Shown here one piece after another: positions 9,787-62,879 of a DNA stretch of 64,000 nucleotides. Under the pieces are notes generated by a model that had not been told where the DNA came from, did not search any database, and saw nothing but the letters and a program-made list of their open reading frames with translations. Position numbers and translations under genes: made by a program. How positions within the stretch are numbered: position 1 is the first letter of the stretch; every line of letters begins with the position of its first letter. The DNA comes from Lytechinus pictus (taxonomy: Eukaryota), in NCBI RefSeq assembly GCF_037042905.1, contig NC_087252.1:3102001-3166000 (forward strand). The letters run 5' to 3'.

Positions 9787-10291
9787 GGGACTCAGTATAT
9801 AATGCATAGTGGGTATGTGCCGCGGAGGGGACCCCCATTTTTACACTCAAATTTCCGTTCCGAGGCATAGCATTTTTGTCTTATTGAGAAAAAGAACAAA
9901 GAAAGCCGCTCAAGAGCATAGCATTTTCTTCTTATCGAGAAAAAAAAAAAGAAATCCGCTCCAAAGCTTCGCATATTTTCCGTTACGCCGTTCCGGTCGC
10001 AATTTTGGTGAAAAGCGGCCGCAGCTCGCTGTCCGACCATCACCCCTGCGCTAGCGCGCCCGTCAGTCGTGCCGCTGGGCTAGCTGCATGTACGTTCCAT
10101 AGGGATGCATACGCACTCGCACGCAGGAGACCCGTTCCAAGGACCCCCGTTTTCACAAACATTTGTAGTTCCGAAGCCCGTTCCGCGGACCCTCCTTTTT
10201 ACAATGAGCCCGCTCCAAGGCCCCCTGTTTTTTGTCCCGCCCGCGGCACACCCCTACCACTTTTTTGGTCGAGTGCCCCCCCCCCCCCCGG
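9787..10291. mobile_element. GC-rich MITE-like repeat, ending gagtg-poly(C)-ggg; truncates the adjacent Gypsy pol
   Basis: Termini gggactc... and ...gagtgccc. Its poly-C tract supplies the spurious GGGG C-terminus of the 735-aa ORF. Confidence 0.5.
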
Positions 10292-12461: not shown

Positions 12462-13032
12462 TGCATGACCAGCCTTAGGCTTACTTCAGGAACCATAACT
12501 AAACGCAGTACCTTCAGCCAAGGAAATCTCCCCCCTTGCTGGCCTTTCCATAAATGGAGTACCAGCCAAAACGTCAACATTAAGGTTCTCAATGACCAAT
12601 CCTTCAAAGTGGAACTCATTACTGCCACGACAAACGGTGAAACGAGTTTCACCACATACCTGCAGCACCGCTGTCGAGGGTGATACGACCAGCATGCTGA
12701 TTATAAAATGCGTCGAAATAAGGAGACTGGCGAACTTGGACACGCAGTGTGGAAGAGGTAACTCCACGGCCAGGGTCTGGTGACAAACAAGCCTCGTCAC
12801 ATGACTCCTGGGGGTCAACAACAACGTCAAAATCATCAGAACCACCATCATCAAAAACCTTGGCAACCTGCCTGGCCTTTGCCATGTACTGCCGATGAGA
12901 GTCTGGAAGGTAAGGACAGACACTCAAAAAATGGTCACTAGGAAAGCCAGCCTGAACACAGAGTGGACAAGATTTGGAAGGCCTGGGACGGAACTTCGCC
13001 GGGGTTCGAGACTGAGTACGCTGGGGAGCAGT

Positions 13033-14181
13033 CTAACTACGACCACGATGCCGAAAAGCCGCTGTACGCATTGCCCTGGAACATTCAACTGACTCCAAAA
13101 GACAAGTAAGGGCCTGAGAAATTTCAGGTTTGAGGGATGCAAGTGTGCGTGAACGGAGTTCTGTGCCGTACCTCTGCTTCACCACCTGGGGAAGGTCAGG
13201 GTGCAAAAGGCGAAGCCACTGCAGAACAATAAAATTCTCAATCGTAGGCGAAAGTTCTTCATCATCCAGGATAGGATCACCGTGATGGGTAATACCACCA
13301 CCAGCCGTCAACAAATTTTCCTGGTCGCTCATCAGATTCCAGCTTTTTTTTGCAAATATAAAAAAAACAAATGGGCACCTGTTGCCTGGAAGCCATAGTG
13401 AAGTCTAATAGTGGCTAAAATGTCATTCAAAGAAGTGGAATTGCGAACAATAGAATTTGTAGCAATGACGGGACAAAAATTAGAAATCTGACCGAGCATA
13501 AGATCAAGGAGGTTCGCTTTCTGTTGAGCAGTCTTGCGTAGATCTGAAGGAACAGAGGGTTGTCATCTATGAAACCCCTTGTGGAAGGTCAGGGTGCAAA
13601 AGGCGGAGCCACTGCAGAACGATGAAATTCTCATTTGTAAGCGAAAGTTCTTCATCATCCAGGATGGGATCACCGTGATGGGTAATACCACCACCAGCCG
13701 TCAACAAATTGTCCTCGACAAAGGCAAGTAATCTCTGACATAAATCTTCTGGTCGCTCATCAGATTCCAGCTTTATCTCGCAAAAATCCAAAAAATGGGC
13801 ACCTGTTGCCTGGAAGCCATAGTGAAGTCTAGTAGTGGCCCAAATGTCATTCAAAGAAGTGGAATTGCGAACAATAGAATTTCTAGCAATGACGGGACAA
13901 AAATTAGCAATCTGACCGAGCATAAGATGAAGGAGGTTCGCTTTTTGTTGAGCAGTGTTGCGTAGCTCTGAAGGAAGAGAGGAATTGTCATCTATGAAAC
14001 CCCTTGTGGGGTTAGCTTTTGTTTTCTTACCCCATGTTACCGACTCAGAAAGGAAGAATGCAAAGTTAGGGTCAATATTCAAGGTGTACAAAGGATTATG
14101 TCTCCATCCTTCAAAGGATGTAATTGATTCGACTTTACCCAAGCACCATTGCTTTGGTACTTTCGGCATACTGCACGCCAT
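13033..14181 (-). pseudogene. Gypsy gag with internal ~400-bp tandem duplication
   Basis: ORF 13567-14181. Peptide [23 protein letters not shown]...LHPDLPQ occurs twice (ORFs 13567 and 13033). Confidence 0.8.
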
Positions 14182-14333
14182 TGTAAGGCTGTGGGACCAA
14201 CACTAATTACGGCTAGATCTAACCAACTACTCGTTCACGGTAAACTTACATTAACGGTGCAACCGGCAAAGTCCAGCAAAGTCTCAGCAAAGTCCTTCAA
14301 ATGTGGCCTAAGAAAGATATTCAGGCGAGAGTG

Positions 14334-14353: not shown

Positions 14354-14613
14354 TGACAATAAATTAGGACACGGAAGCAACTTTGTAGTTAGGATTAATA
14401 TTTGATTAACCGTAATCAAGTCTAGAGTCGGACAAACGTGTTTCCGTATAACTGACACAGATGGCACTATACCATTAGATACAAATCAACTGGCGCTGAG
14501 GCATGGCGGCTTGTCAATGTTCAGAACCCACCTTCACCCGACAAAGGAAATTATTATTGGTATAGTGTCTATCTGACGGTCAATTGGATCGGGGTCGCCC
14601 TAGCCACTAACCC

Positions 14614-14685
14614 GTCTCTGTGGTCTAGTGGTTAAGGCACCGGCGTTCAAAGCTGGAGGCCCGGGTTCGAATCCCGGCAGAGACA
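14614..14685 (+). tRNA. tRNA-like gene with complete cloverleaf and UCA anticodon (tRNA-Glu-related, repeat-borne; function unproven)
   Basis: GTCTCTG/CAGAGAC acceptor stem; GTCT/AGGC D stem; CCGGC-GTTCAAA-GCTGG anticodon arm (TCA at 14647-14649); CCGGG-TTCGAAT-CCCGG T arm; discriminator A; TTTTT terminator at 14686-14690. Confidence 0.6.
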
Positions 14686-15465
14686 TTTTTCAGCATCACC
14701 ACTTGGTCTAATAGCCACTTGGTCTAATACCAAATTGGTCTAATGACCGCTTAGTCTTAAAACCACTTGGTCTAATGCCCAGTTGGGCTAATCGTCATTT
14801 GGTCTAATTGCCATTTCGTCTAATGTATTTTATTGTCACTTGGTCTAATTGCATTTGGTCTAATATTAGTTCGTCTAATAGTCGGATGGTCTAATACTAA
14901 TTGGTCTGATACCAGTTGGTCTAATCCTCACTTGGTCCATTATTCATTTGGTCTATATTGCCGTTGGTCTAATCCTCATTTGGTCCATTATTCAGTTAGT
15001 CTAATGTGCAATTGGTCTAATTTCCATTTCGGTCAATCTCCACTTGGTCTAATTTTCAGATAGTCTAACATTCATTTCGTCTACATGCCATCTGGTCTAA
15101 TTTGTAAAGTCTGCATGGTGACTTGCTTTCAATTTTCTGGTGAAATTTGTAAAGTTACTTTCCGTGCGCCGGCTTCGAATCTTCACACGCGCGCCCCTCG
15201 ATAATGTAATACAGTTACAGTGACGTATATTTCGGCCCCAACTGAATTTTGAAAACATGGGGATTTTGGAAAGCCTGTGGGGGACGAAAAAAATATGGGG
15301 GTTAAACAAACATTGGGGATTTTTGAAGGTTTCGGTGAAAAACAATCAAATTTGCTCTTTTTCTGTAAAATAACGCTAATATAGAGGTGGAAAAAATTTG
15401 ATATTTATTTATCCACCTCTATGTATACGATCTACTGTAGATACATGTAGTTAACGCTGGCTTAA

Positions 15466-36511: not shown

Positions 36512-38122
36512 TCATAAATATGTGGTGATCACCGAATCAGGACTTTCCAAAGCAATTCCTTGCTGGGGAAGAAATGTTGTAGGACCTGAACACGATTTGT
36601 ATCCCCCATCACGGGAATTTAGTATAATATCTAAAGTTGAACCCCCTTGCCATGCTTGTAGTGATGAATCACATGCTGCCTGTGTTGGATTCAGAGAAGA
36701 AAAGTTACCAGGTGGACTGGTTTGATGATTGGGTGGAATACCGAGGTGAGCTCTCGGCTTCATCTCCATGTATTCGTGAGAATCCAGGATGGTTTGTTTA
36801 AGAACCACATCACTTCGGGAAACAGCGGGATCTCCACCAACACCAGGTTTTGACTAAAGTTAGTGAAAATGTATTGAAAATTTTACTGAGTAACACCTTT
36901 AATATTTGACCCAGAATTCAAAATAGAAATATCATTTTACCTCAACCATTATTCTCTTGCGAGTAACAATATTAATAGTAATAATAATAACAAAACAATC
37001 AAAATGTTCGCGTGGCTGCAGATAATATAGATCTAATGGCCCATTAACTCAAATGAGTTTCGATTTACATCAATTTAATCGTTGTAGCTACACAATGTAT
37101 ATTTATGGCCATGAGGTGATACGATTTTTAATGTGTTTAAATAATCTGCATTCCGTATTGTTCACACACAATCGTATATCCATTTTTATTTACCTTTGTA
37201 CACTGCATATAATTAATTGTTGCGAACCCTACAACATTATACGATTCGGTATAGGTGGTATTCTAGACTGGATTCTATTCAAGCATACATTCTGTTTTAT
37301 TTAAAATTTCAGTGAAGAAATAAGAGCTTGATCGTTATGATTTAATTAACAATATTACATGGAGTGGTATTACCAATTCTATTTACCATGGCAAAATCAG
37401 CATGAGCGGGTTCTTGGTTCGAGTCCTTCTGTTGTTTGGTGGTGATTGAAACTCCGTCTGTATTCTCTGCAATATAAAGAACAATTTGAAAGTAATATAA
37501 GGAATTATTCGTGAGAGTCATTAATACACAGTCATGATAACTCATATTTAAGATAAAAAGATTGTGTATATTCAGATTTCATTCCGTGTCTATATTTTTT
37601 CAAATAAATAAGTAATCAAAATGAGCGGATGATTGGAAAGGGGAATACTGTACAATTATGACATCATGGTAAATATCTAACAAATAGCGCATTGTGAAAT
37701 ATGAAAATGTTGACCACAGATACGCAGAAAATCTCAAGAAGATTGCAAAACAAAAAAGAAAATCAAAGGTGGGCTTAGGCATCATGGCAGTTGAATATGA
37801 CTTGTTTGATTGAAAAGTATACAACTGTAATCACTAAGCAATTACTTATTTCAAATTGAGTCATCTAGCACATATTAATAAATATATATACATGTATAAT
37901 ATATACATAAAATAATTTTGTTCCCTGAAATATAAAAAACAAACTAAATTTTGTTCCCGGAACAACCCCATTCCAGGTCCACGGGTGGTTTCACGAACGC
38001 ATTGGTCATACAGACAAGCGTCTTGTTTTCCCCTTCCTCAACAATAATTGATCCTCCTTTAGGAATTATTTTATCATACCGGTCGTAGGTATGTTCAACC
38101 AACTTCAACCCTTTAGGTGGAA
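36512..38122 (-). pseudogene. Ig-superfamily receptor gene, copy A remnant (partial C2 exon ~37960-38122, tail exons 37387-37466 and 36512-36853)
   Basis: Clear paralogs of the copy B exons with intact splice sites. The C2 exon is broken after PPVDLEW and the TM exon is absent. Confidence 0.85.
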
Positions 38123-39507: not shown

Positions 39508-39870
39508 TCACATGTGGGCAACAGATAGCGGGTGATCAGTCTTTCCCTTTGAGAAGGCCAAATGTCTTTCTTTGACAGACTTAATCTGCTCAGTCGATTG
39601 ATGAAACACAATGAAATTTAACTCCGAGTCGTCAGGATTATCTGCCCGGTGAGCATACGCTTCGCTGACGAGAACCGTCACATTATGACCATGTCTCACG
39701 AGGTATTTTCCAATCGTCTTCCCGACGAAATATTGCGATCCTTCGCCAAGGCTTGTGGTGATTAGGACGTTGCCCGCCAGCAGGCTTGGAGGCAGGGTAA
39801 GAAGCACCACACAAAAACATATTAATGGGACTGCATTCGATCTTCGCAGAAGAAAAGATTGATTCGCCAT
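39508..39870 (-). pseudogene. UDP-glucuronosyltransferase (UGT) N-terminal fragment / orphan first exon
   Basis: MANQSF...signal peptide...AGNVLITTSLGEGSQYFVGKTIGKYLVRHGHNVTVLV is the typical animal UGT N-terminus (GSH...L..RGHxVT.L). No downstream UGT exons recognised in the window. Confidence 0.8.
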
Positions 39871-42800
39871 TGTCTCGCTTTCTCCTTGAGCGGACGGTCT
39901 CCGTGCTCGAGATGGATGTCTCAAACATCAAATAAGGAGTGTAATCATAATATTTGTATCAGCCAACACAGTGCCACCATGGAGACTCTGATAAAAACCG
40001 TGCATAATTATTATAAATCTCATTGAAGTCCGTTGCTTGAAAGCGGATAATGCTTTCCTTCCGTTCGCTCGAGCCCTTGGTAAAAAATAAATATGAACCT
40101 TATACCGCGATTACCGTATATAGCTACGAGATGAGACGAAGCCAATCCTCGTTCTCCCACTGACCAAGTTTGTACTAACCAGCAGTCGTGTTGTCATTGA
40201 AATGATGTGAATTGTCCCTCAATTTTGGAAGGAAGGTCAGTGCTTTATAATAAGTAAGTAGGCCGTTGAAGTGATCAGTTCAGCTTAGTCTGCCTGAACA
40301 GACCCTTATTGGTATTTTTAGCGGTGTTCGCAATTTCAGATCATGGCACACATATGGTAGTCGTGTACTGTACATTTCAAAATTTTAAGTTTGACATATT
40401 TGGTTCGTACTTGGAACTTGCGTATTTCTGTTTGTATGCATCCACATTGGAAAATGACTGTAATTTCAAATTATTTTGACAATTTTAGGTTTGTGCTTGT
40501 CATTGTCCGAACCCATGATCCCGTCTCGCTCGTTTTTCTTTCTCAAACTATAAAGAATAAAAAATATAAATTAAACAGATGCAGCTATTTTGTCGTCTTA
40601 CACGAAATTGACAGTTAATTAATTGACGCACGCTGGAGATTGCCTATACCAGAGAATATATTTATATAGAAAAGGTAAAAGGAGCATTTAAAAGGAGTTC
40701 ACTCGTCTGTGAGAATTTTTAAAACGATGTTTAATTTATATTTTCAAACAGTTCCTATGTTTTTAAGAATTTCATTTAAATGTTAGTCAAATTTCCTCGA
40801 ACGGCCGGGTAAATATAAGCCTTAGTAAATATAAGTATTAATGTAAATCTATATTAAGTTCCTAGTTTCCTTTTGTTCTGACGGCTTTGATCATGGAACA
40901 TCAAAAGCGTCAGAACATGTGTGGTTTATTGCTTGTTCCAGAGCCAAAAGATCATTTTAAAGAGCTAAGATTTGTGTCTATATTCATGTAATGAACTCAT
41001 CACAGCCGTTTCTTCCAGCGTACACTCTTTTTCACCGAGTGGGGGCGTTATAAATCCAAATAGAGCTCTCAGATTGAGTACATGTACTATTTCTGGTTGA
41101 ATACTCTTGCAAATAGAGGGAGAGTAAATGCAAATTAATAGGCCTAAATATGCGTATGATTGGTTTCGATTCCTGGAAATTCTTATATTCCCAATTGTTT
41201 AAAGCATCAACTGAATTAATCGGAATACAGATACATGCTTTTAAAGCGACAACATTCTAACGGGAATAATTTGCATTTCCGAATAGCATTTTTTTATATT
41301 CAGTTCCATGACATACGGGTACTATTGATGGTTGGGATGTATCATGTGCTGGTTAAATCCTGAAACACTTTGTCGATGATACTCACTTCCTAAATTCCTC
41401 CAGAGAGATTCACTTCAACAATGTAAAAAATGGGAACAAGCAGACTACACCATTGATAAAATGAGACACTAAAAACTATTTACCAAAGGTGGCGCTATGA
41501 TATTTTGATGAGGGTGGGGGTGCAAAATTGAGGTGATGTTATTTCTACAAAATAGAATGATATGGTTATTATATATTAACATGGCCCAGATCGATCTCTC
41601 ATTCTTTTTTATAAACTAATCGTTTTACCGTTATCCCTCTGTGTTTGCTAATTAAAAAATCATGTGCTCCGCCCCGTGTAGCGCTGCCACCGATGGCCTC
41701 TTAAAAATAACAGCAATCATCTGTTTTGGAAACATATCCGCCACAAAAATAAATATAAATTTATACTAAACATTAAGAAGATGTATTTCCCGAATTTGTG
41801 AATCTTTTTCTGGCAAACCAGCACAAAACCAACAATAATTCTACAAAAATAAATTTACTCTTCTTCCAGTTTTGAAAATATATCCTAAGCTTTGCAGCTA
41901 CTTTGAAATATTGAGCCCCATCATTTAAAAAAAGGGAAGTCCCTCGTTTATTTTCCAGCTTTAAGATAAATCTGAAAAGGTCTCTTTTCTGTAAATCCTT
42001 TTCCTTGTTATAGTCTTATCTGTGTATTATGTAGATGGTGTTTTAATAAACTGAAAATATACCTTTATTTATTATTTTCTTATTTCACTGAGACCCATGT
42101 AGCAGAATACGCATGAGTTTTGTTCACTTTATCAGAGGTTCCTTTAAATTCTTTCCCGGATTTCACTAGTGTATATTCAGACTTGTAACACTAAAAGTGT
42201 CATCGGTCGTTAGTAAGTTTGACAACCCTTAAAGTTTACATGGAAAACAAAACACACGCACATACCCATACAACATACTTGCGAAAACACACCTACGCAC
42301 ACACAGCGTCGCATGCCATTATAGCCTCCCACGCCCTTGCACACACACTCACACCCACTCCCACGACCCTTGCACACCCACACACATCCTTACAGACAAA
42401 TCTCTCTCTCTATCTCCCTTTGTCTTTTATCTCATTATTCAATTTTTCTAGTCAGTTTTAATATGCGTTGACATAGTTGGTGCATGTGCAAGCGATTGTG
42501 CTGAGCTACAGGCGGGAAATTTAATGTACATAATAATAATTTACTATTCCAATATTAATTCTTATAATCTGGTCGCACAAGCATCGGCAAATTTTATTGT
42601 TTAAAATTAACAAACATAAATATTGCATCGATAATTATGCCGAAGAAACAGTTAACTTTAAATCGTGTTAAAAAAATAGTTTCACCTGAATACTTAAACA
42701 TATGCACAAATCTTAATTACTCGGCATATGCCTATCGTGACATTATGTGGAGACGCCGTTTCCATTGGTTATGTAGTTTATCATCATGTGCTTGTAAAGC

Positions 42801-48467: not shown

Positions 48468-48806
48468 TCATAAATATGTGGTGATCACCGAATCAGGACT
48501 TTCCAACGCAATTCCTTGCTGGGGAAATGTAGGACCTGAACAGGATATGTATCCCCCGTCACAGGAATCCAACTTTTTTTGAAGTATGGCATCTGAAATT
48601 GAACCCCCTTTCAGCGATGAAGCCCATGCTGATTGGGTCGGATGTAAAGAAGAAGGGTAACCAGGTGGACTGGGTTGATGATTGGGTGGAACACCTGTGT
48701 GAGCTATTGCCTTCATTTCCATGTATTCGTGGGAATCCTGGATGGTTTGCTTAGGAACCACATCACTTCGGGAAACAACGGGATCTCCACCAACACCAGG
48801 TTTGGA
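48468..48806 (-). CDS. IgSF receptor copy B, last exon (cytoplasmic; YMEM motif, C-terminal TTYL)
   Basis: Acceptor ttcctaactgtag, phase 0: SKPGVGGDPVV...DSHEYMEMK...SPDSVITTYL*. Conserved with 36512-36853. Confidence 0.8.
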   Translation of the reverse strand, partial: SKPGVGGDPVVSRSDVVPKQTIQDSHEYMEMKAIAHTGVPPNHQPSPPGYPSSLHPTQSAWASSLKGGSISDAILQKKLDSCDGGYISCSGPTFPQQGIALESPDSVITTYL

Positions 48807-49292
48807 CTACAGTTAGGAAATATGTATGAGATATGAAAATTTACTGATTAACACCTTTAAGAGTTGACCTGGAATTCAAATATAACACAACTAATATGCT
48901 CTTACCAATAATTAAGAAACAATCGAGTTGTTCGCGTGGCTAGAGATAATCTAATGGGCCTCTTATCTCCAATAAGTTTTGATTTACATCAATTTAATCG
49001 TTGTAGATGCACAATGTATAAAATAATGTCATGAAGTGATACGATACTAATATATCTATTTAAAATGTATAATCCGTTACATGTATATTAAAAATGGCAT
49101 AGAAAATTGAGCATGATGATGATCACCATATGTATATATATTTTCATTATAAATGTTGGTTTTTCTCGTCAACAATATCACACGAAATAGTATTCTGGAA
49201 CGGGATCTATTGAAATATATATTTAGTTTTACTTAAAAATTCGGTTTTAAAAAATTGAAAAAGATTGGATTGTTATTGCCACTTATACTTAC

Positions 49293-49384
49293 CATGGTGG
49301 AATTCACATAAAGAGGCTCGTGGTTCGAGTCTTTGTGGTGCATTGCGGTCACTGACACTCCATCTGCCATGTCTGCGTCCCCTG
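49293..49384 (-). CDS. IgSF receptor copy B, cytoplasmic exon (YVN motif)
   Basis: Acceptor ttttgtag(cag), donor ATG|GTAAGT, phase 1-0: AGDADMADGVSVTAMHHKDSNHEPLYVNSTM. Confidence 0.8.
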
Positions 49385-50147
49385 CTACAAAAGCAAATTT
49401 GAAAATGAAAGAAATTTAGGGAGATTTCATATAAAAAACGGATATTGTATTGTCTGTTTTGATTACGTGTACATGTATTGTCTGCGAAGAAATGGGTAAT
49501 CAACACGGGAAAATAATTGGAAAGAGAGGCACTTTTAATATTCTGACATTATGGTTAGATATCGAACACTATAGCGAATCGCTATTAATTATTACTATAA
49601 TTATTTTATTTTGGCAATGAAGGGTGTACTAAATTGGTGCAATTAAACATAAAACATAATGAATAGAGAATGGATTGAGCACCCACTGGACTGCCTGGGT
49701 CAAATAAAGTTAACTGATGTATCAACGAATAGTGAACTAATAAATCTAGATAACGGATACGCTGAGAATCACCAAAAGATCGCCAACAAAGAAAAAAAAT
49801 TAACATTGACAGTTAAAAAAGGGAATCGTTTCATTGGGAGCATGCAATGGCAAATTACTAATTGCTAATTTCAAAGTCATCTGGCGCATATTCTACAAAT
49901 AAAACCAGTTTTATTCCCTTCTAATCTCTCATAGTAAATTGCGTTAAAAGTGCACATGCTGTGCATGTTGAGCTTATCATGCTTATTAACGTTGAATATG
50001 AGTCCAAACTGGCTCAGGTTTGGTTGAATTTGCCAAAAATTCAAATGACATTTGTTGTAAATACATTAATAGAACAGTTGCGATGAATTATATAAATATC
50101 TTGGTTATGGTTATAGCTATAATTATAATAGCCTTGTAATCACCATG

Positions 50148-50332
50148 TACTCTAAAAACACTGAGTAGAATTTTACCCAATATTTGGTATTTAGGGAACA
50201 TGCATGTTTGCTGAGTATGTTTTTTTACCCCACATTTGGCTATTTCAACGCAACATTGCGTAAAATCTTTTTACTCAACCAACATGCATGTTCCCATTTT
50301 ACCCAGTATTGGGTACACCTTTTTTAAGAGTG
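50148..50332. mobile_element. Short palindromic CACTA-like MITE
   Basis: (t)ACTCTAAAAA...TTTTTAAGAGTG with an internal inverted gggaacatgcatgtt/aacatgcatgttccc pair. Confidence 0.5.
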
Positions 50333-50479
50333 TGTTCATATACAATTCACATAGACATATTTTCATAGATATCAGATTTAATTATTCTGTGTCATTGATA
50401 ATCAAACAACTTTAACGAATTTTATGTTATATTGATATTTTTTTTTATTAAGTTATATATTGAACAGAAACAAAATCAC

Positions 50480-50599
50480 CTCTATCTGTGTTATGTTGTA
50501 AGCACTTGTACGAAACTGTTACTGCAACTAGGCCCAGAAACATTGCACCTAATGACCCTCCCAAGATGTATATAACTATATGAAGCAGAGCACAGTTGT
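50480..50599 (-). CDS. IgSF receptor copy B, transmembrane exon
   Basis: Acceptor cttgattctag, donor AG|GTGATT, phase 1-1: DNCALLHIVIYILGGSLGAMFLGLVAVTVSYKCLQHNTDR. Too short for the ORF track. Confidence 0.85.
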
Positions 50600-50694
50600 C
50601 TAGAATCAAGATATAAAATTATATGTTATTTCTTCTGACAATTATGAATATTCTCCAAATTGCAAGCGAGCCAAGCCAAACATATATGTATAGT

Positions 50695-50990
50695 GGAGCG
50701 TCGTGGCCCAGTGGATTAGTCTCCGGACTTTGAAACAGAGGGTCGTGGGTTCAAATCCCAGCTATGGCCTAATTTCCTTCAGCAAGGAATTCATCCACAG
50801 TGTGCTGCACTCGACCCAGGTGAGGTAAATGGGTACCGGCAGGAAGTAATTCCTCAAAAAGCTGTGTGCACCGAGAAGGTAGCCTAGCTTAGCCGGGTAA
50901 TAATAGCAGGGCCCGCTGGGAGAACAGTTTTCGGAACTGAAGTGGCCACCCTTGGTAAATATACCTTTATTATTATTATTATTATTATTA
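50695..50990 (+). mobile_element. tRNA-derived SINE, full length
   Basis: GGAGCGTCGTGGCCCAGTGG (A box), GGTTCAAATCC (B box), (TTA)n tail. Confidence 0.85.
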
Positions 50991-51002
50991 CATATGTCTT
51001 AC

Positions 51003-51101
51003 CATTTCACCTCTTTGAATGGTGATATAGTTCAAACGATGTGACAATACGACCAGAATAGTTAGTGTCAATGTTAATGTTAACTGTATAGGATATTAGC
51101 A
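51003..51101 (-). other. Candidate stalk exon of the IgSF gene with an in-frame TGA
   Basis: Acceptor tttgaatttcag, donor G|GTAAGA, 99 nt, phase 1-1: VLISYTVNINIDTNYSGRIVTSFELYHHSKR*N. Confidence 0.45.
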
Positions 51102-51321
51102 CTGAAATTCAAATTAACAAAACAGATTACTCTTAAGACACATTGCTTATTTGCTTATTACATGTAGGTAGCATTTACGGGAGCATTAATAATAATAATA
51201 ATAATAATAATAGCCAATTTTTATAAAGCGCTTTTCCCAGAGTGGCTCAAAGCGCGTTACAGCATATTATTACCCCGGGCATTCATGTAAATTAAAATCT
51301 ATGAGCCATTCATTAAAGAAT

Positions 51322-51363
<42 letters not shown>

Positions 51364-51445
51364 GTGTGAAGTTGTACATGTACAACAGCTTTTGCAGCTC
51401 TTTTATTTAAATAAAAGGAATGGATGAAGAGAACAATGGTAGGCG

Positions 51446-52723
51446 CAACCGCGTAGCCAGGATTTCATTTTGGAGGGGGCGGTAAATGCACGCAAAGAGT
51501 GCCAACACTTACAGAGCGCGCGAAGCGCGCTCTCCAGGTGGTGGGTGCAGGGAGGGGGAGTTTGCCCCTCCCTTGCGAAGCTTTTCGTTTTTCATAAATT
51601 AAAATGAAAAGGAGCCGTCTCTCTTGTCTCTATTACCTATATCAGCTCCAATTCAGTTGACTATATTGTGATTTTGAACCTTGTTTTCAAAAATGATTGC
51701 GAACCCCATTAAATGATTAAAATAATAACCCCTTAAGCGTTTTATCATTTTTCTTGCCACGAAAAGGGTCCCGAGAAAAGGGTATTCTCAAAGATATATT
51801 GAATACTTCCCTTGAAAAGATCAGATTTGATTACAAACAATTTAGCGACAGTGCATATCTTTAACTCGTAAAACAGAGGAGAAGAAGTGTATATGCCGAG
51901 ATGAAGATATTCCTCCACGCACAGAGCAATGAAACTGAAATTTCAAAGGGCGGACGTTTCATCAAATGCAGATATCTGTCATACCCCATCGGCTCTCATT
52001 CAATTGATTTTCTAAGATTATTGAACTTCATTACAAGGAAAATAGTGCACAAAAAGTTGAAACTTCTGTGATTTATTGAAATTATATAAAAAAGGATGCC
52101 TAATTTCTTTGACTTATCCCGAAGCGCTTCATTTTGAACTATAAAGAAACTTAAGTGTCATTCAAAATTTGAAACAGAGGGCGCAAAACAGGACAGGGGG
52201 TGAATGTGTAGGGAAATGACATGAAGTTTAATAGAATTTGATAAAAAAATATTGTACTTTTTTATTTAATACGACACGAATTTCAAACCTTCCTCTTTTG
52301 AAAATAGGAACCTGTTTGCCCCCAAATTACGGTTGGTTATAGTGATAAGCTGAAAGCGGGAGAAGTTGACTTTATGGCGGTGACGGCCGAAATAGATATA
52401 AATATTTTACCTGCCCGGAGCCGACCCGATCAGAAGTTGCGCAATCAATAAAAAAAGAGATAACTTCATATACTTCGGCCTAACCTTACTTTAATTCCAT
52501 GAACTTTAACTGGCAAGAAACACAGGTGGAAAAACAGGGTTAGAAAAAAACGTAGGGGAAACCATGTGAAGGAGTTTCTCTTTTGAGAGAAAAAAAAAAG
52601 AATAAAAAGAAAAAACAGAAAGCTACCTTCCTTCCCTTTCCTCCCTTCCCTTTTCCTTTTCTCCTCCCTTTTTTCCTTTTTTTTTTGGGGGGGGGGGGCG
52701 ACCGCCACCTGGCTACGCGCCTA
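51446..52723. mobile_element. hAT-like non-autonomous element inserted into the tRNA-like cassette
   Basis: ggtaggcg|CAACCGCGTAGCCAGG...CCTGGCTACGCGCCTA|ggtaggcg. The uninterrupted cassette at 3426 has a single ggtaggcg. Confidence 0.9.
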
Positions 52724-52793
52724 GGTAGGCGTAGCTTAAATTAAGGTTCCCCAGAGCAATCTACCCTTTGGAAAAATTGGTAATGCCGAAAAA

Positions 52794-52866
52794 TGCCTCT
52801 GCCGGGAATCGAACCCGGGCCCCCAGCTTTTGAACGCCGGTGCCTTAACCACTAGACCACAGAGAC
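52794..52866 (-). tRNA. Second copy of the tRNA-like gene (8-nt anticodon loop GTTCAAAA; likely non-functional)
   Basis: Differs from 14614-14685 at only a few positions and shares the ~45-bp 5' flank and the 3' flank. Confidence 0.55.
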
Positions 52867-53695
52867 GGGTTAGTTGCTAGAGAGACCCCGATCCGATTGA
52901 CCGTCAGATAGAACTTCATCTTCCTTTTGAATGCCTGAAAGTATTAAAGGTTATTCTGGGAACGTATTCTTGTATTCATTTCCGAGTACTCTAAACGTGC
53001 AATGTCATTATATGTTTGCTATGGCATATTTCCTTAATCATTATTGATCCGTAAATTAAAATTTTTATCCAAGTAATTAATACATTGCGCACTTTCTTTA
53101 TCAAAATCATTCGAACACCAACTTATAATGTAATAATAACCATTATGAATTAGTTAGGATTATTACAGATATCGTGTTTATAATAGTCAATTGTTTTATT
53201 CTATTAAGATTATGTTGAAATTGTGAATAGAATAGCATTGTCTGATCGCATGTCAAATCTCAGCTAAGATCAAGATATAATCTCATTTATATTAACAGTG
53301 GGGGAAAAAAGGTGTAAAATGCAGGGGCGTAGACAACGGGGGGATGAGGGGGATGCATCCCCCACCTCACAAGGTGGGGGGGGGGGGGATGGCATGTACA
53401 ATCATCCCCCCCAGGTTTTTGGGAATGATATTTGGTTACTTAATAAGTCATAATGATGATAATAATAGTAATAATAATAATGATAACAATTATAATATTA
53501 ATAATAATAATAATTATGATGATGATAATAATAATCCTCATCATTATTGTAATTGTGTTTATTGTTATTAGCCGCATTCACACGGTGAAAGCCAATTCAG
53601 ACGGTAAAAAAAAGAAAATCTTACAAGTATTTTGTGGTTATCTTGTGGTTTGGAAACCACAAGATAACCACAAGTATTATTCAAACAAACATATA

Positions 53696-54686
53696 CAGTG
53701 CGTCCCAAAAAAAATGTCCCTCTTATATGGGGCTAAATTACTTCAAAAAATAAAAATTATTCTCCATGAAATGTATTTAACTAGGAAGCTCATCTCATGT
53801 TCTAACTTCTAAAAAAATTTCATTGGTCTCGCTTCAGTGGTTTTGAATACACAGTCTATTATATAAAAATTGTGCTTTTCAGCCCATTCCAAGTTTGCAT
53901 GCATGCAGCATTACTGTGTGTTCTGCACTTTCTAGCATATCATCCCCCTTTGACCATTCTGACCAAGGAATTCCCTGATCTGACCAGGGAAATCTCCATG
54001 ATCTAACCAGGCTCATCAAATCACAACTTTGAGCATGTTTAGAAGGGCAAAAACAATATTTGACAGCTCATTTCATGTTTGAAAATGGGAGATGCACAAT
54101 GATTAAGACAACGGGTCATGTCTGTTTCATGCCTAATTCATGCTTAATACTGCATTTTTTGTTTTTATTGGTTTTTTTAGTTTAAAAAAAAGTCAAATTT
54201 TTCTCTGGTAAAGTTCCTTTTCCGCAAAGGGTGTTTAACTTGCGGATTCCCCTTTATTTTTGAGCTTATTTTACTCATCCATCATTTACATTTTCTTTCA
54301 AGTTGGTGCACTGATTCCCCTTATCAATCATCAATAAACTTTTTTTTTTTCTTGCCCTTCTGAACATGCCCAAGTTTATAATTTGATGAGCCTGTATATG
54401 ATTAGGGAAATGTCCCTGTTCAGATCCTGGATGTAAAAATGGGGGTTAACATGCCATAGACAATGCAGATATGCATCAATGCTGCAAACTTGGAATGGGC
54501 TAAAATGCACCACTGTTACGTAACAGAGTGTGTATTCAAAACCGCTGAAGCGAGACCAATGAAATTTTCATAGAAGTTAGATCATGAAATGAGCTTTCTA
54601 CTCATGAACATTTATTTGAGAATACTACCACATTTTAGAATTAATTCAGTCCTATGTCAGAGGGACATTTTTTTTGGGACGCGCTG
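53696..54686. mobile_element. Tc1/mariner-like MITE with long TIRs
   Basis: TA|CAGTGCGTCCCAAAAAAAATGTCCC ... GGGACATTTTTTTTGGGACGCGCTG|TA. Arms align for ~350 bp. Confidence 0.9.
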
Positions 54687-55043
54687 TATAATTATGTATA
54701 ATCATGAATTGTTCAACTTCATGCTCCCACTATATGACTATTGTTTAATACACTAATACTGATATCAGGACTGACTGGTATACATTGGTTTGTTGTTAAG
54801 CTTGCAGCAGCTACATCTTTTCTGTATTGTTAACTATTTATTTATTTTTGTTTTATTTAAGATGCACTTTGTTTTGTATTCATTTAAAGTTGGTTGATTG
54901 ATGCATGAAGACATAAGTTTGAAATGTTTAAAGAAGTTTGTTTCATGTAAAGCGCAGTGTGAATTTACCCTGTCTTGAAATGCGAGATAAAAGGAACCTA
55001 TTAGTATTAGCATTATCATTTGTACTAGTATTATTTTTTATTT

Positions 55044-55083
<40 letters not shown>

Positions 55084-55641
55084 TATAAGACTGAGATCAA
55101 ATAGAAGTAAATAATGCCCTAATTTGAAACGATGTAATGCCGTTATGGTTCCGATTTCTTCACAAACTTACAAAGCAGTATTGTTACTCCATGGATCATA
55201 GTGATACTGTTTATGTTTTTTGTATCTGTATGTTAATGAGCCGCCAGCCAATATCCATCTATGGATACTATGCCTGTTTCTTTAAGGTAAAAAGAAGCAT
55301 AGTATGTACGTATTCATTATGCTTTATAATGAACAGACATATTGTTATTTGTTTGTTGTTTATGTGTTCTATTCACAAATGGCCACTGTTTTCATTCATA
55401 ACCACATACCCATATCAAGACAACAAAGACTATACCTGCGTGTACACAGTTGACATTGTTTTTTTTTCTGAAGAGGTGTAACAGCAAAATTCACAGAGAT
55501 AAATAAATACGTAGCGTGGTTCAATATGCAATACTATGTGTCAGTCCATTCTGTATTCGTATGCCACGGTGTGTAGATCTTGTCGATGTATGTCTGTCCA
55601 TTCAAGGCGTAGTATGTGTGTGGTGCGCGCACCCGTGTGTG

Positions 55642-55677
<36 letters not shown>

Positions 55678-57193
55678 CGCGCTTGTGTGTGTTATTTTAC
55701 CTCATTAAGTATGCATCAGATTGCACGATTTCAAGTTCAAAATTGCAAAAGCTCCCTACCTAGATAACTGTTTCCCGGGCCTCTTGGGTTGAGCGCGTAC
55801 AGTCTCCGAGATGGTCACGTCACATGTGACCCTCCGTATGTTTTTGTATTACCATGGTATCACAGCCTGTTTCCCGTACGTTATTGCAATTAATTATTAG
55901 GGACATAGCTTCATATGATTTTATATATATTTTGCATGATTGTTTGTCAAATTGAAGATACGAATTATGGAAAACGTTTTTACATGTTTTCATAATAATG
56001 ATATTGTTATATTGGACTTGAATTGAATATGCCAACTCAAACGGAGTAATACAAGTTGAAAAAACCGTAGTAACAAGCATATCTATTGCATTTCTTATTA
56101 TAGTCTAGGAGATAGGGGGCTTTATTCAGAATTTTTGGTGGGGAAGGTTTGACAAGCTTGTCCGGGGTAAAATTGTGCGCTGATTCCAAAAATGTCACTC
56201 TTACTGACCGTACTCACGCCATTTTGGTCATTTTGGCCAATTTTTTACCAAAAATGACAATTTTGACCACTCTCTGGAAAGTGGTCCCTTAACAGACTGC
56301 TTTTGTAGCCAGATGCAAATAAAATGATCTATCTTACGTAAAAATGCACCCAGATTCAAGATAAAGTGGTTTCATTTGCCAAATCACAATAGAAGTGGTC
56401 ATTTTGGCCATATTTTGGCAAAAAATGACAATTTTCATGATTTTTTTGGTCCGAAATGTGTTACAAATATTGATCAGAGCTACGATTGGATGTCTTTAGA
56501 AATCCACATTTATTTTCAAAATGTGCGCTAGAAAACGATGAATAAAAATATATACCTTCCGACTGTCCACATTTAGCAGTGCTTGAATGACTATACAGAA
56601 GGCTTGTTACATTACTGTTTCCGATAGTTGTGGATTCTAAATAGATAATACACAACACGCGTTAAAATGAAAATACATTCAATACCAGACGAAAGTGTAA
56701 TGTGTAGATGAGATGAATGAATGATTTTTGATAATGAAAACATAAAAAAAATAAATGTGCGAAGAAAGAAGATTACCACAATAACGGTTGTGAAATGGAC
56801 AACAAATTAATCTATGGTTATATATGCCCATTCATAAGTAATTACTGAATAATAAACACTTTTTCTTAATAGTTTTCCTCTTTGTTTTATATAATATTGA
56901 ATCATAAACAACGATATATTCTTCACATTAATTCTCAACTGGACACTGATCAGAGTAAATATATATAAAAAAAATAATGAACAACCCTAGTCCGTGTTTC
57001 GTTTTGGATCTCAAAAAAGCAATAGTCGATATGATAGAATACCAACAAATTTAATTTCCATTCCCGACTACACCATGCCATGCACCAATTAGTTTGACTG
57101 GCATACAAATATATATGGGGGACATTTTATTAGGAAATAGTTTTTAATAGGTCATTTTTAATGCTACATAAAAGAATATGTACACGAACTCAC

Positions 57194-57559
57194 CTTGCTC
57201 ATCTTCCTTTTTTATGATAACGGATGCACTGATGTGGCTTAAAGATGAACTACCAGTGACTCTACAGACAAGCACTATCTCATCATCATCCATATAGGTT
57301 GGTGTGAAGTATATTGTTTGTATAGGAAAAGCAAGTCTTTTATCATTTGAATCATTGAGAAGCTTTGGCATTTGAACGACATACTCCAGCATGTCCTCTG
57401 GAATCACCCACTCCAGGTCCACAGGTGGTTTCACGAACGTATTGGTCTTGCAGACAAGCGTCTTGTTTTCCCCTTCTTGAACAACAATTGATCCTCCTTT
57501 CGGAATTTTATCATCCCGGTCGTATGCATCTTCAACCAACGTCAACCCTTTAGGTAGAA
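57194..57559 (-). CDS. IgSF receptor copy B, C2-like Ig domain exon
   Basis: Acceptor gtgtactag, donor G|GTGAGT, 366 nt, phase 1-1. Pattern TLVC...KPPVDLEW...LVCRV. Confidence 0.85.
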
Positions 57560-58637
57560 CTAGTACACGGTAAAAATGAATTGATAGAGAGGGGGAAATA
57601 GAGACCATTAAAATTCTGACCCGTTTTGATATTGACTTATGAACATCATTGATGTCAAATTCTGCTTCTTATTATTATCTTCTGAAATTCACAAAATTAC
57701 TTTGGAGTTTGACTTCTCTTACCCCTTCCCATTCCCCAATTAGGTGAATGCATACATAAGATAGTCAAATTCTAAAGTATTTTGCTATTTTCCCCCGAAA
57801 TAATAGTCAGAAATATTAACATTCGTTCCAGCGAGAATGCTGATGGAAAATTATCACGTAAAGCCAAACATGAAACCTACCCTTCAAGACTAAATAAACA
57901 ATAATAATTATCTTAGCATAGTTCTCAATCAAGAGCTATAATAAAATCATATTTCTCTAACCCAATGCTCTCCGACATATCATAACCAGAGCAAATTCGT
58001 GTCACCATCTGAAGAGTACAAATAGTATTTTTACAAATACTCTCAAATTATAGTTTTTCTTAAATGTTAGTAAAAAAAATAATTTGAGCATTACTCTCTA
58101 ATTTATCAAATGAATTTTAATTCTTGAACATAACATGATTTGGTTTTATTAAAATTGATCAAACGAAAATAGTAAATAAATTTTGGAAGAAGGAATTTAG
58201 GAGTCAGGGAATACACTTTGCAAATTTAGATTTAACCTCGGATTAATGTTATCAGCAAAAGGAACACGAAAACCTACTTCAAGGGATAGCTTTTATTTTG
58301 GATAAATAACATCAATTTCATCGTTTCATTCAACTTTGTGCATTATGTTTTGGTAACTTTTTAATTTAAACAATGGAATGAACAAGGATGACATTGTGAA
58401 AAGTGAAAAAATGTCAAAGATTTTTTTTTTCAAAAGGAATTAGATCCATTTCAGTTTATGAAATGAACAAGAATACCATTTAATAATGGTAATAAGTACA
58501 AACGCCTTTGCCCCAGATTATTACTACTTTGTCCACCTCTACTTCATCAATGAATTATAAATTATATCTAGAAAATGTGGCGAATGTATCAAATATTTTG
58601 AATGCTATTTTGTTAATCGTATAAAAAGTGATTTTAC

Positions 58638-58925
58638 CATTAACAGTCAACTTGATATCACACGTTTCCCTATCGTTATCACTTGTCCAATCGAATACGT
58701 ATTCACCTTCATGAATCAACGAAACGTTCCGTATTGTTAAATTAGTGGAGGTTAATACCGAAATATTTTTTTCACAGTCAACCGTAAATGGACTGCAGAT
58801 GAAAACTATTGAGCCATTGCTTCGCTTCAACGCTATACCAAGATCGCCAGTTGTGTCGTTTGGGAGGCAGTGTAGACTGACGTTCTTTCCAGCTTGGACT
58901 GTTATATTTACAGCTTGGTCTCCAC
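58638..58925 (-). CDS. IgSF receptor copy B, V-like Ig domain exon
   Basis: Acceptor ttttattttaaag, donor G|GTAAAA, 288 nt, phase 1-1. G.NVSLHC...NLTIRNVSLIHEGEYVF...LTV. Confidence 0.8.
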
Positions 58926-59038
58926 CTTTAAAATAAAAACATTTTACTGTTTTATGTATAACCAAATCATTTACTATCATTTGAAGCACTTATTACTGAC
59001 CTACATGTATTAATATGGATCTTGTATCACTGTGGTAT

Positions 59039-59069
<31 letters not shown>

Positions 59070-59470
59070 TTGATATATTCATATTCCACAATCATCAAAG
59101 TACATTTATAATAAATCATTTTAACACTGAAAAAATACATAACACACAGGATTGAAACGTAGCAATGAAATGAAAAAAGTGGAGGGGCCTACTAAATATC
59201 AATATACTCAAAACTTAAAACCATAATGAAATGGGGAAAATTGTTTTGAAGGTTCTCTCAATTATTTATCACTTAAATAGTACACATATATTATTGTTGA
59301 TATTTACTCATCGTAATTTTAAGTTCATGAATATCTGCAATGTTGCAATAACGAATGTCTTTGTCACAACCGGTGTTGTGAATGCAACACCGGAGGTCAC
59401 TGATATGGATTTGAAGTTTTTTTAACAAAGTAACTTTGTTCACATGAATGCTTTTAACTGTTCTCCTTAC

Positions 59471-59527
59471 GGTGTTGCAACAAAAAAAAATGAGAACGAG
59501 TATGGTAATAACTCTTTCTTTGATCAT
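59471..59527 (-). CDS. IgSF receptor copy B, putative signal-peptide exon
   Basis: MIKERVITILVLIFF... then donor GTAAGG. As written it ends in phase 0 whereas the next exon needs phase 1; a T9 run lies inside. Confidence 0.55.
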
Positions 59528-60329
59528 GTTTCTGTAACTGTTCTCAGTTTTAAGAAAAGGGTATATTAATATGATCACAACTAAGTAGCCTGACATGAGG
59601 ACGATCGATGTTATGAATAAAAAAATAGTCTAGATTTCAACTTAGACTTATATTGATATTAAACATAAATGAAATCAGAGATAAGACGCTCTACAAGAAA
59701 AGTAAATCTACTTGCTGAGTCTAGTCACAATTGATTGTATAATTACCCATATTCTACACACCTAATCATTTTTTTTTTTGGGGGGGGGGCAAATTGCATA
59801 GCGTCATAACTAGTAAGAAACAACGAGAGATATGCTTACCTAAAACGTAACTTATAGATCCAATTATGAAGAAAGATAACTTCCACATGATTAGTTAGGT
59901 TTGTTTCCAGTTTACATGGATCAAAGAATCGTGTAACAAAAGGAAGCGGTAATAGGTTGCAAAAGAAATACTTGTCGTATTATGACAATTCTGATCGGCA
60001 GAATACGACAGATTGTTTGGTGTTGGCGCCCTTTACCTAAAATACCAACATGTTATTATAATCTACAAATTAAACCATGTCATTAATTTCAAAGTCTTAT
60101 CAATAAAATATGATATAGCCAAAATATTTATTGAATGCCATTTCTCAAATGAAACAAAGCCCAATTTCGAGAGTTTTTTATTTTATTTTAAATACAGTAT
60201 GTTGTGTCAAAAAAAATCATCCCCACAGCCGTTACGGATTATGCATATTGCTAATTTCCCAATGCCTCTTTTTAATGCAACGTAAAAGGATAAGTATGGA
60301 AAATCAGGTCAAATGTAATTAAAATACCC

Positions 60330-60780
60330 CGATAAAGTACCCTATCCAAGCTATTTCACTAAACCCATAATGTGAAACACCCGAATATCGCATTCACAAT
60401 ATATATTATTGAAAAGGGAGAAGACCACTCAATACCATTCTTCGACGTTATTGTCACATGTGAACCAAGCAACCTCCTCTCACACCGGGTCTCCTACGAT
60501 CCAACCAAAACAAGCAACGCCACTTTCAGTAATTCCATCGCCCTTTTGTCAACCTGTTTGTCCCCAGAACATTGGTCAAGAGGGCACCATTAATGATGAC
60601 AACCATCATCTAGGAGGGCTTGAACAACTCAAGTCTAATCTCATAACCCTTAACGTTTATTCCCGCACAAGATCAAGACCAAATCTACTCCACCCCGCAG
60701 CAAGGATCCAGCCAATAAGTTATACCCTGTTCAGGCCCTACATCCCACAAAGTTCAGCTTATTTTCAAGTCAGTCAAAAT
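60330..60780 (+). mobile_element. Degenerate Penelope-like retroelement RT fragment
   Basis: KHPNIAFT...HSIPFFDVIV...LSHRVSYDPT matches the PLE RT C-terminal pattern HP.I.FT.E.E...PFLD....VY.KPT. Confidence 0.65.
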
Positions 60781-60954
60781 TGAAGTGGGACGCCCTATAA
60801 TGATACGCCTCGAAGAAATTTTGTCAGCCAAAAATGAAATCAAAATTTTGAGTGGTTAAAAGCAGAATAGTACATCAATACTGCCAAATTTAAATTGCCA
60901 AAGCTTATAGTTGACTTGTTAAGAGCTTGAACGCTGCTTTTTTTTAGTACAAAT

Positions 60955-62797
60955 TTAGGGTCAAATTTCATGTCAGGAATATATCAGCACGTTATGAAGG
61001 AGTTGGGAATAAAGCAGATCAAGTCCTCTGCTTATCACCCACAGTCCCAAGGAGCGTTAGAACGCTATCATCAGACCCTGAAGACCATGATTAGGGCTTA
61101 TTGCGAAGACTATCCCGATGACTGGGATAAAGGGATCTCATTCCTACTGTTTGCAACTAGGGATTCCCCTTATGAGTCCACAGGTTTCAGTCCATTTGAA
61201 TTGGTCTATGGTCATGAGGTTAGGGGCCCCCTAAAGCTGATCAAAGAGGGGTTTATGGTTCAGGATGATGATGTAAACCTTCTAGACTATGTGTCAAAAT
61301 TTAGAGAAAGGCTCTCAAAAGCTTGTGATGTGGCTAAGGAACACTTGAAAGTGTCGCAAGGAAAAATGAAAGCTCAAGCTGACAAAAATGCAAAAGAGCG
61401 AAGTTTCAAGCCTGGAGACAAAGTATTAGTGTTGTTGCCTTTGCAAGGTGAGCCCTTGAAAGCTAGGTTTAGTGGTCCCTACATAGTCAAAAGGAAACTG
61501 AATGATGTTAACTATTTGATCAGTACCCCTGATCGAAGAAAGTCTCAAAGAGTTTGTCATGTAAACATGTTGAAAGAATATTTTGAGCGAGAGGCTAGTC
61601 AGCAAATAGGTACAACACAGGTCAAAGAAGACAAGAAACGTGTAAATGTAGATGAAGAAAAATGCTATGGAAAGACAGCTAATGAATTGTCTTATACAGA
61701 TGTATCTAAGAATGAACCATGTGGTGTAAAGTTGTTTAACTCAGAGATGCTAGGAAATATGGATGAGGCATTAAAACACCTGCCTGAAGATCAGAGAAAT
61801 GATATATCTGGCCTGTTTAGAGAATATGAGAATGTGTGTAAAGACACACCAGGGCGTACACCTTTAACTGTACATGATGTAGACGTAGGTGATGTAAGAC
61901 CTATCAAACAGAATCCTTAAAGGCTCAGTCCAAGCAAGTTGGAAATGGTGAATAAGGAAATACATTTTATGTTAGATAATGTTAGATTCTCCTATTACAA
62001 TGGTTCCAAAGCCAGACGGCTCTCAGAGATTTTGCATTGATTACCGAAAGGTAAATGCAGTAACTAAGACTGACTCGTATCCAATTCCTAGGTTAGAAGA
62101 TTGTATTGATAGGGTTGGAAAATCTGCCTATATCACAAAGATAGACTTGCTTAAAGGATATTGGCAAGTGCCACTGACTGACCGAGCCAAAGAGATATCA
62201 GCCTTTGTTACACCTGAAGGCTTATTTCAATGCAAAGTCGTGCCTTTTGGAATGAAAAATGCACCAGCAACTTTCCAAAGATTAACAAATCAAGTGATTG
62301 CTGGGCTTGACAACTGTGTCGTGTACATAGATGACATCCTAGTGTACAGTGATACTGGGAATGGTCATCTAGTCTCTAGATCATTTAAGAGCACTGTTTG
62401 ACAGGCTGGATATAGCCAACCTAGTAGTGAATCTGATGAAGAGTGAATTTGCCAAGGCAAAGGTCGCCTATCTTGGTCATTTGGTTGGTCAAGGGCAAGT
62501 TCTACCAAGAGAAGCCAAGATACAAGCTATCTTAGACTTCACAATTCCCACAACTAAGAAAGAATTGCTCAGATTCTTAGGTACGAGTGGCTTCTACAGG
62601 AAATTTTTTCCAAATTACAGTACAGTGGATAGCCCTCTGACAAACCTGCTGAAGGCAAAAGTGAAGTATGTTTGGTCTGACGAATGTCAGAGATCATTTG
62701 AGAAATTAAAGGCCATTTTGGTAAATGAGACTGTTTTGGCAGCTCCAAACTTCACAAAACCGTTCAAAGTAGCTATTGATGCATGTAATGTTGGAGT
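60955..62797 (+). mobile_element. Gmr1-like Ty3/Gypsy pol fragment (integrase, then RT, then RNase H), inactivated
   Basis: GSNFMS...AYHPQSQGALER...TGFSPFELVYG...GPY (IN), then PIKQNP, RFCIDYRKVN, PFGMKNAPATFQR, YIDD (RT), then IDAC (start of RH). Stop at 61918-61920 plus frameshifts. Confidence 0.92.
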
Positions 62798-62879
62798 AGG
62801 GCTCGAACCTCGAACCTCTGCATCAATTTGTAACTTCCCAACATAGCTTGGATTACAGGCGCACGCCACAACGCCCAGT
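62798..62879 (-). mobile_element. 7SL/Alu-domain-like SINE head fragment
   Basis: Minus strand ACTGGGCGTTGTGGCGTGCGCCTGTAATCCAAGCTA resembles the 7SL 5' end (GCCGGGCGCGGTGGCGCGTGCCTGTAGTCCCAGCTA), followed by the B-box-like GGTTCGAGCCC. Confidence 0.6.

Follow-up and report, generated by a model that had tools for sequence, protein, structure and literature searches.

Does the sea urchin genome hold paired receptors, in which an inhibitory receptor and an activating one share a binding domain? The question is raised by a 64,000-nucleotide stretch of Lytechinus pictus DNA (C8:3102001-3166000 of an 812-Mb genome; hereafter the window), which carries on its minus strand G6, a gene for an immunoglobulin (Ig) superfamily receptor. 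A preliminary description, made from the letters of the window alone, had read G6 as a receptor with a costimulatory-type tail. The analysis covered 464 kb in and around the window, where the copies of this tail were modelled as G1x and G2-G9. A further gene at the head of the cluster, G1, has a tail of the type that carries immunoreceptor tyrosine-based inhibition motifs (ITIMs). We suggest, with a probability of roughly 0.5, that G6 is the activating paired partner of G1.

Mosaic origin of G6

G6 is a real, intact gene: its seven exons make up an open frame of 444 codons, and all junctions have AG/GT ends and are in phase (Table 1). Over a bounded tract of ~3.4 kb it matches the 5' region of G1, 234 kb away, with 97% identity. 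The tract covers the 5' flank, the signal exon, the V exon and the introns, and includes several indels. Within the second Ig exon the identity is down to 82%. The limits of the tract are the acceptor of the second Ig exon on one side and a long terminal repeat (LTR) retrotransposon remnant on the other; upstream of it, no resumed G1 match of at least 200 bp was found. Signal peptides of the two genes agree at 16 of 16 residues and V domains at 86 of 95 (91%), and the G6 V exon shares 33-39% amino acid identity with the other six cluster V exons.

The rest of the gene has other nearest relatives. The second Ig exon is unique, with 70-76% amino acid identity to its three nearest paralogs. The stalk is nearest to that of G9 (23/26 residues), and the transmembrane segment (38/39) and last exon (100/112) are nearest to those of G8. 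Exon trees, each of nine rows, disagreed accordingly: V grouped with G1 and the tail with G8, at 100/99 each. Constraint tests rejected grouping of V with G8 (p 6e-5), of the second Ig exon with G8 (1e-6) and of the second Ig exon with G1 (0.03); the transmembrane tree gave p 0.052 in a test that was poorly posed. As judged from these trees, G6 is a mosaic whose transmembrane segment and tail come from a different paralog than its V exon. Gene conversion, or else a short segmental copy, probably gave rise to the shared tract.

Divergence of the second Ig exon (nonsynonymous, dN, 0.15-0.18; synonymous, dS, 0.35-0.42) indicates purifying selection on it. Positive selection on V between G6 and G1 was considered and rejected (Fisher p 0.47-1). 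Residues 31-46 hold six of the nine differences between the V domains (scan p 0.016), but this region was picked post hoc and is a lead only. Remnants of LTR-retrotransposon pol genes were seen at 60931-62846 (+) and 10254-14202 (-), with Pfam matches to reverse transcriptase/RNase H and integrase ends in several broken frames.

Opposing tail motifs in G6 and G1

The preliminary description had placed EPLYVNS, YMEM, GGYIS and a terminal TTYL in a tail of about 150 residues. The size was borne out, at 142 residues, and each motif was found where it had been put, YMEM to the exact base. YVN and YMEM are separate sites 33 residues apart; no Yxx[LIV] site and no immunoreceptor tyrosine-based activation motif (ITAM) was found in the tail. 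In 100,000 shuffles of the tail, YxN occurred in 10%, YxxM in 17% and a terminal [ST]x[LVI] in 3%, and all three together in 0.05%.

These motifs differ in how well they are kept. YMEM is present in all nine cluster tails, and a YxxM also in a distant paralog 35 Mb away, while TTYL is terminal and in frame in eight of the nine, the last being the frameshifted G3. YxN was present in four of nine cluster tails only and was rejected as a family hallmark. Exact GGYIS was seen in five. When the L. variegatus protein P0007, which retains YxN, YMEM and TTYL, was included, 44 of 142 positions were invariant, among them YMEM and the last eight residues (p 8e-5 for such a run at the end, 0.005 anywhere; G3 excluded where cut). 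A C-terminal T-x-L is a class I PDZ ligand. A match to the PI3K p85 iSH2 domain is present in the genome, and binding of SH2 and PDZ domains by the G6 tail is predicted from its motifs. In CD28, YxxM binds PI3K and YxN binds Grb2/GADS (PMC11599192).

The G1 tail is of another kind. Its 219 residues hold two consensus ITIMs plus another three Yxx[LV] sites, whereas YxN, YxxM and a PDZ-type end are missing; at least five Yxx[LV]-type sites occurred in 0.4% of shuffles of this tail. A genome search with the G1 tail exons returned no match beyond G1. Judged by predicted motifs, no other gene of the cluster has a tail of the ITIM type.

G1 is annotated with five isoforms. In three of these (P0003-P0005, vs P0009-P0010) an internal donor deletes the last 23 residues of V; the stretch spliced out is present in G6 (58707 region). 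An orphan tail, G1x, lies 7.6 kb behind G1 (C8:3371190-3372761, -) and consists of a transmembrane exon, a short exon and a last exon with YMEM and TTYL. It is phase-compatible with the G1 stalk and possibly serves as an alternative, activating 3' end of G1.

G6 and G1 as candidate paired receptors

Paired receptors are encoded by linked genes with similar binding domains that are kept alike by conversion (PMC13358205, PMC5701461, PMC5112662). The activating partner usually relies on an ITAM or a charged transmembrane segment, and the ITIMs of the other recruit SHP phosphatases (PMC13358205). G6 and G1 are linked at 234 kb and have highly similar V domains. Recent non-allelic homogenisation is seen in the bounded tract and the discordant exon trees, and at the motif level their tails are set against each other: two consensus ITIMs vs YxN/YxxM. 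By these sequence features G6 matches a paired activating receptor at the genomic level and fails the usual ITAM or charged-transmembrane feature.

Because the 5' flank is shared, G6 and G1 likely share a cell type; conversion or segmental copying of the tract would also imply a similar ligand. We consider it about an even chance that the two receptors share expression and ligand, with activating output from G6 and inhibitory output from G1. Ligand binding would lead a Src-type kinase to phosphorylate YMEM and YVN of G6, and the phosphorylated sites would recruit PI3K p85 and Grb2, with TTYL anchoring the receptor to a PDZ scaffold. The ITIM-like tyrosines of G1 would engage SHP/SHIP-type phosphatases. 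The pair would likely be driven by a non-self ligand or a microbe taking advantage of the inhibitory G1.

Gene structure

G6 encodes, in order, a signal peptide, V domain, second Ig domain, stalk, transmembrane helix and tail, as in a type I Ig receptor. The overall layout in the preliminary description, from signal peptide to tail, held; the signal exon it implied was wrong, and it had overlooked the 81-nt stalk exon. The five exons it had joined (V, second Ig, transmembrane, YxN and last) are phase-compatible, with AG/GT ends and in-frame joins.

The apparent signal exon of the preliminary description, at 59471..59527 (-) with its ATG at 59527 and donor at 59471, is intron sequence. Its donor has phase 0 and V starts in phase 1, so it cannot join V. 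Of seven ATGs examined upstream of this donor, two are open, both in phase 0, and the other five run into stops. A contig of sequencing run X6 skips 59471..59527 and joins 59838-59983 to the V exon, placing the 5' untranslated region at least to about 59983. The intron between stalk and transmembrane exons contains a long inverted repeat pair (53692-54690), whose arms are 74% identical across about 370 bp. It also holds a short high-copy repeat (52775-52912), a second copy of which lies at 14568-14704.

Table 1. Coordinates, in the window, of the exons of G6, the tract it shares with G1 and the truncated sister copy G7.
Feature	Position	Strand	Evidence and remarks
Tract matching 5' part of G1, bounded	57560..60930	-	97.2%, 3090/3180 aligned bases; G1 at C8:3394.5-3397.9 kb
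Signal-peptide exon (49 nt, phase 1)	59840..59888	-	Identical to first exon of annotated paralog P0005/P0010
V-like Ig exon, atypical	58638..58925	-	Pfam V-set E 3.8e-5; alignment; atlas V-set clusters 0.94
Second Ig exon (C2-like, Cys36/Trp50/Cys98)	57194..57559	-	Model pLDDT 72.8; Foldseek; atlas C2-set_2 0.94
Stalk exon (81 nt, phase 1-1, Ser/Thr-rich)	56556..56636	-	89% match to annotated paralog P0002; splice sites
Transmembrane exon, uncharged helix	50480..50599	-	Hydropathy highest at residues 269-288
First cytoplasmic exon with YVN (49302-49310, within EPLYVNS)	49293..49384	-	AG/GT ends, frame
Last exon with YMEM (48714-48725), GGYIS (48543-48557), TTYL-stop (48468-48482)	48468..48806	-	Nine genome copies
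Truncated sister copy G7	36512..38122	-	Second Ig exon stops after about 52 codons; tail exons intact, with YMEM and TTYL

Immunoglobulin domains and transmembrane helix

A signal peptide, Ig-fold domains, one transmembrane helix and a cytoplasmic tail are all present, in agreement with the earlier assignment to the Ig superfamily type I receptors. The labels V-like and C2-like are approximate. The G6 V exon matched Pfam V-set with 24.3 bits, under the curated cut-off of 26; among the aligned V exons, seven of ten matched V-set and nine of ten I-set at E <= 0.05. In the atlas it sits with V-set clusters. It lacks the Cys after the F-strand Tyr and the C-strand Trp of a canonical V-set domain; Cys19 and Tyr75 are kept, together with a late Cys88 near the end that is conserved in nine of ten alignment rows.

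The structure model of this domain had a predicted local distance difference test (pLDDT) score of 53.7, too poor for disulfide placement. Foldseek with this low-confidence model returned nothing at E <= 0.001, and CRTAM and nectin-2 at E about 3e-3. Among the best 60 of 245 matches of the V profile to PDB sequences, the nearest were the adhesion molecules NCAM1 and the IgLONs, and none was CD28, CTLA4 or ICOS.

The second Ig domain was modelled with better confidence as an all-beta sandwich. Its Foldseek matches were mostly Ig folds and generic (template modelling score up to 0.57). The C2 call is weak: atlas C2-set_2 clusters scored 0.93-0.94, and Pfam gave only weak Ig_3, C1-set and Ig_2 matches. 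The V-C2-transmembrane order is, as had been noted, that of B7, CTX and nectin proteins, a layout common to many families; sequence affinity to these three was limited to weak, mixed matches. The transmembrane helix has zero charged residues.

The tandem cluster

All nine last-exon copies are on the minus strand of C8, at 3.05-3.37 Mb (about 320 kb). Their V exons are 25-91% identical, with a mean of 39% at the amino acid level across eight copies, and the proposal of a tandemly duplicated, fast-changing invertebrate Ig family thus proved sound. Protein searches with G6 exons returned only L. pictus and L. variegatus proteins, all 'uncharacterized'; that three word-index protein searches gave only Lytechinus proteins is weak evidence on a wider range.

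Not all copies are complete. An ectodomain was sought and not found for G7, in which no V or transmembrane exon was detected either, or for the orphan tail G1x. The last exon of G3 (C8:3292428-3292752, -) is frameshifted after about 79 codons, keeping YMEM and losing the TTYL end. The distant relative at C8:38.09 Mb follows the same plan of transmembrane, short and long exons and retains YxxM; its tail is otherwise barely alignable (best local match E 0.024, centred on YxxM). This relative occupies C8:38.093-38.111 Mb (-); two of its four V-like pieces carry stops, it has a single second Ig exon, and its tail lacks a PDZ-type end. Around a weak match to the second Ig exon at C8:11.9 Mb no further match was found.

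A piece resembling a UDP-glucuronosyltransferase first exon (39511-39927, -; weak Pfam match) lies directly upstream of G7. It travels with the duplicated unit, since 93% identical copies occur at C8:3185 kb and 3043 kb. Tandem repeats of about 42 bases fill 5.6 kb between G3 and G4 (C8:3283649-3289286).

Transcript evidence

Contigs were taken from poorly described runs: X1 is RNA by guess, and X6 is labelled as another organism. In one X1 contig a G6-type V is joined at the predicted junction to a second Ig exon; this contig shows 12 + 20 differences and one gap of 3 bases. Another X1 contig runs gap-free across a G6-type second Ig exon to the donor at 57194 and differs at 20 of 275 bases. 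An X6 contig joins V to a second Ig start unlike that of G6. Intron repeats crowded the matches in which exon joints were sought. The contigs support the splicing plan of the family, not expression of G6.

Discussion

Several results weigh against G6 as the activating partner of G1. The ITAM or charged transmembrane segment expected of an activating partner is lacking in G6. The groups in the tree tests were named after the pairwise identities were known, and mosaic genes arise neutrally in any tandem cluster. There is no significant excess of replacement differences between the two V exons (replacement, Nd, 10.5/223; silent, Sd, 1.5/62). At least two ITIMs occurred in 4% of G1 tail shuffles, so that the ITIM match is weak alone. 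Constraint on the last exon as a whole is weak (pooled Nd/N 0.131 vs Sd/S 0.162), and tail similarity is therefore mostly recent copying. The X1 contig that joins V to the second Ig exon may derive from G1 or a sister rather than from G6. Among the matches listed (15 of 240; 15 of 60), no stalk-transmembrane, transmembrane-YxN or YxN-last joint was seen and no contig was assignable to G6 itself, and the G6 protein was absent from the results of two protein searches with its exons.

The strongest alternative, which we regard as somewhat unlikely, is that G6 is a functional adhesion or junction receptor in the style of nectin, CADM or CTX, with a PI3K and PDZ tail and a V exon shared through neutral recombination, without pairing. 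Such a receptor would have the V-C2-stalk-transmembrane-PDZ layout of G6, and the nearest solved structures among the matches listed are NCAM1 and the IgLONs, with CRTAM and nectin-2 at the level given above for the low-confidence model. Four different nearest paralogs along the gene point to frequent shuffling, and the constant features of the tails are YMEM and TTYL, not YxN. Against this, the limits of the tract enclose precisely the signal and V exons with the 5' flank, and its source is the one gene with opposite motifs. The V diversity and the broken G3 and G7 would better fit an arms race than a housekeeping role in adhesion.

It is less likely still that G6 is a recombinant of recent origin that is not expressed or can be dispensed with, on its way to becoming a pseudogene and carried by some haplotypes only. 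The retrotransposon remnant about 1 kb upstream of its ATG, its lack of public annotation in the two protein searches, the broken neighbours G7 and G3 and the 4-13% differences of the contigs over its exons would suit this explanation. However, its frame and all splice sites are intact, the unique second Ig exon is under purifying selection, and the X1 contig covers a second Ig exon of its type gapless to the predicted donor. An assembly artefact in which an allele of G1 was misjoined to another gene is very improbable: 97% identity may fall within the allelic divergence of an outbred urchin and no contig examined spans either breakpoint, but the tract is short, bounded on both sides and carries several indels, the second Ig exon is unique, four donors would require several misjoins, and the separately annotated P0008 has a tail stretch resembling that of G6.

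G6 appears better framed as one of a receptor pair, having its V exon in common with a neighbour of the ITIM type, than as a costimulatory receptor. CD28, ICOS and CD28H share with it the YxxM (PI3K) and YxN (Grb2/GADS) docking motifs; CD28, however, has one V domain and both motifs in one YMN, whereas G6 has two Ig domains, two sites and a PDZ-type end (PMC11599192). 'Costimulatory' in the CD28 sense finds no support in a two-Ig receptor whose two sites are separate. The earlier caution against CD28 orthology was well placed: lacking a single V with a composite Y-M-N/D, and any homology to CD28, CTLA4 or ICOS among the 60 PDB-sequence matches listed, G6 is by sequence not a member of that family. 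For the purple sea urchin, PMC11599192 reports that no convincing CD28, CTLA4 or ICOS homolog was found.

Vertebrates are already known to have paired receptors whose likeness is maintained by conversion, and Ig clusters with ITIM and ITAM motifs are known from a cnidarian and a tunicate. Like vertebrate pairs, G6 and G1 are linked genes with a V exon probably homogenised by conversion and a putative ITIM tail on one partner. In those pairs the activating receptor signals via an ITAM adaptor such as DAP12; G6 has an uncharged transmembrane helix and a long YxN/YxxM/PDZ tail, and it is compared with them by features, not by sequence homology. Siglec-11/16 (PMC5701461) and the Xenopus ceacam pairs (PMC5112662) were defined by the same genomic signature. 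CEACAM1/CEACAM3 and the Xenopus pairs also combine recent binding-domain conversion with their own signalling tails, in pairs inferred from genomes; CEACAM3 differs in its ITAM-like motif, which G6 lacks, and the likeness is again one of features (PMC5112662). Hydractinia Alr and Botryllus FcoR are lineage-restricted Ig clusters in which opposing tyrosine motifs occur together with exon shuffling or V domains of atypical form (10.1101/2022.03.04.482883; PMC12582321). They are likened to G6 and G1 by features, not homology: their motifs are ITAM/hemITAM vs ITIM, and urchins are not colonial. For the Botryllus FcoR genes, it is reported that no YxNM was found (PMC12582321). In searches of open-access full texts no echinoderm pair of this kind was listed.

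An immune response of this sea urchin has long been on record (reference list of PMC2248247). G6 may have an immune role. More tentatively, urchins might have evolved their own paired system, with a single ITIM receptor set against a range of shuffled activating receptors of the PI3K/Grb2 type. G6 would be a converted decoy that copied the promoter and V of G1, turning a pathogen's pull on the brake into activation through CD28/DAP10-type motifs instead of ITAMs. What is new here is the specific partner carrying the V domain of G1. If the pair is functional, the same design would have arisen independently with a different activating output (PI3K/Grb2, not ITAM/Syk), and the two genes would offer a test of inhibitory vs activating recognition in a laboratory sea urchin.

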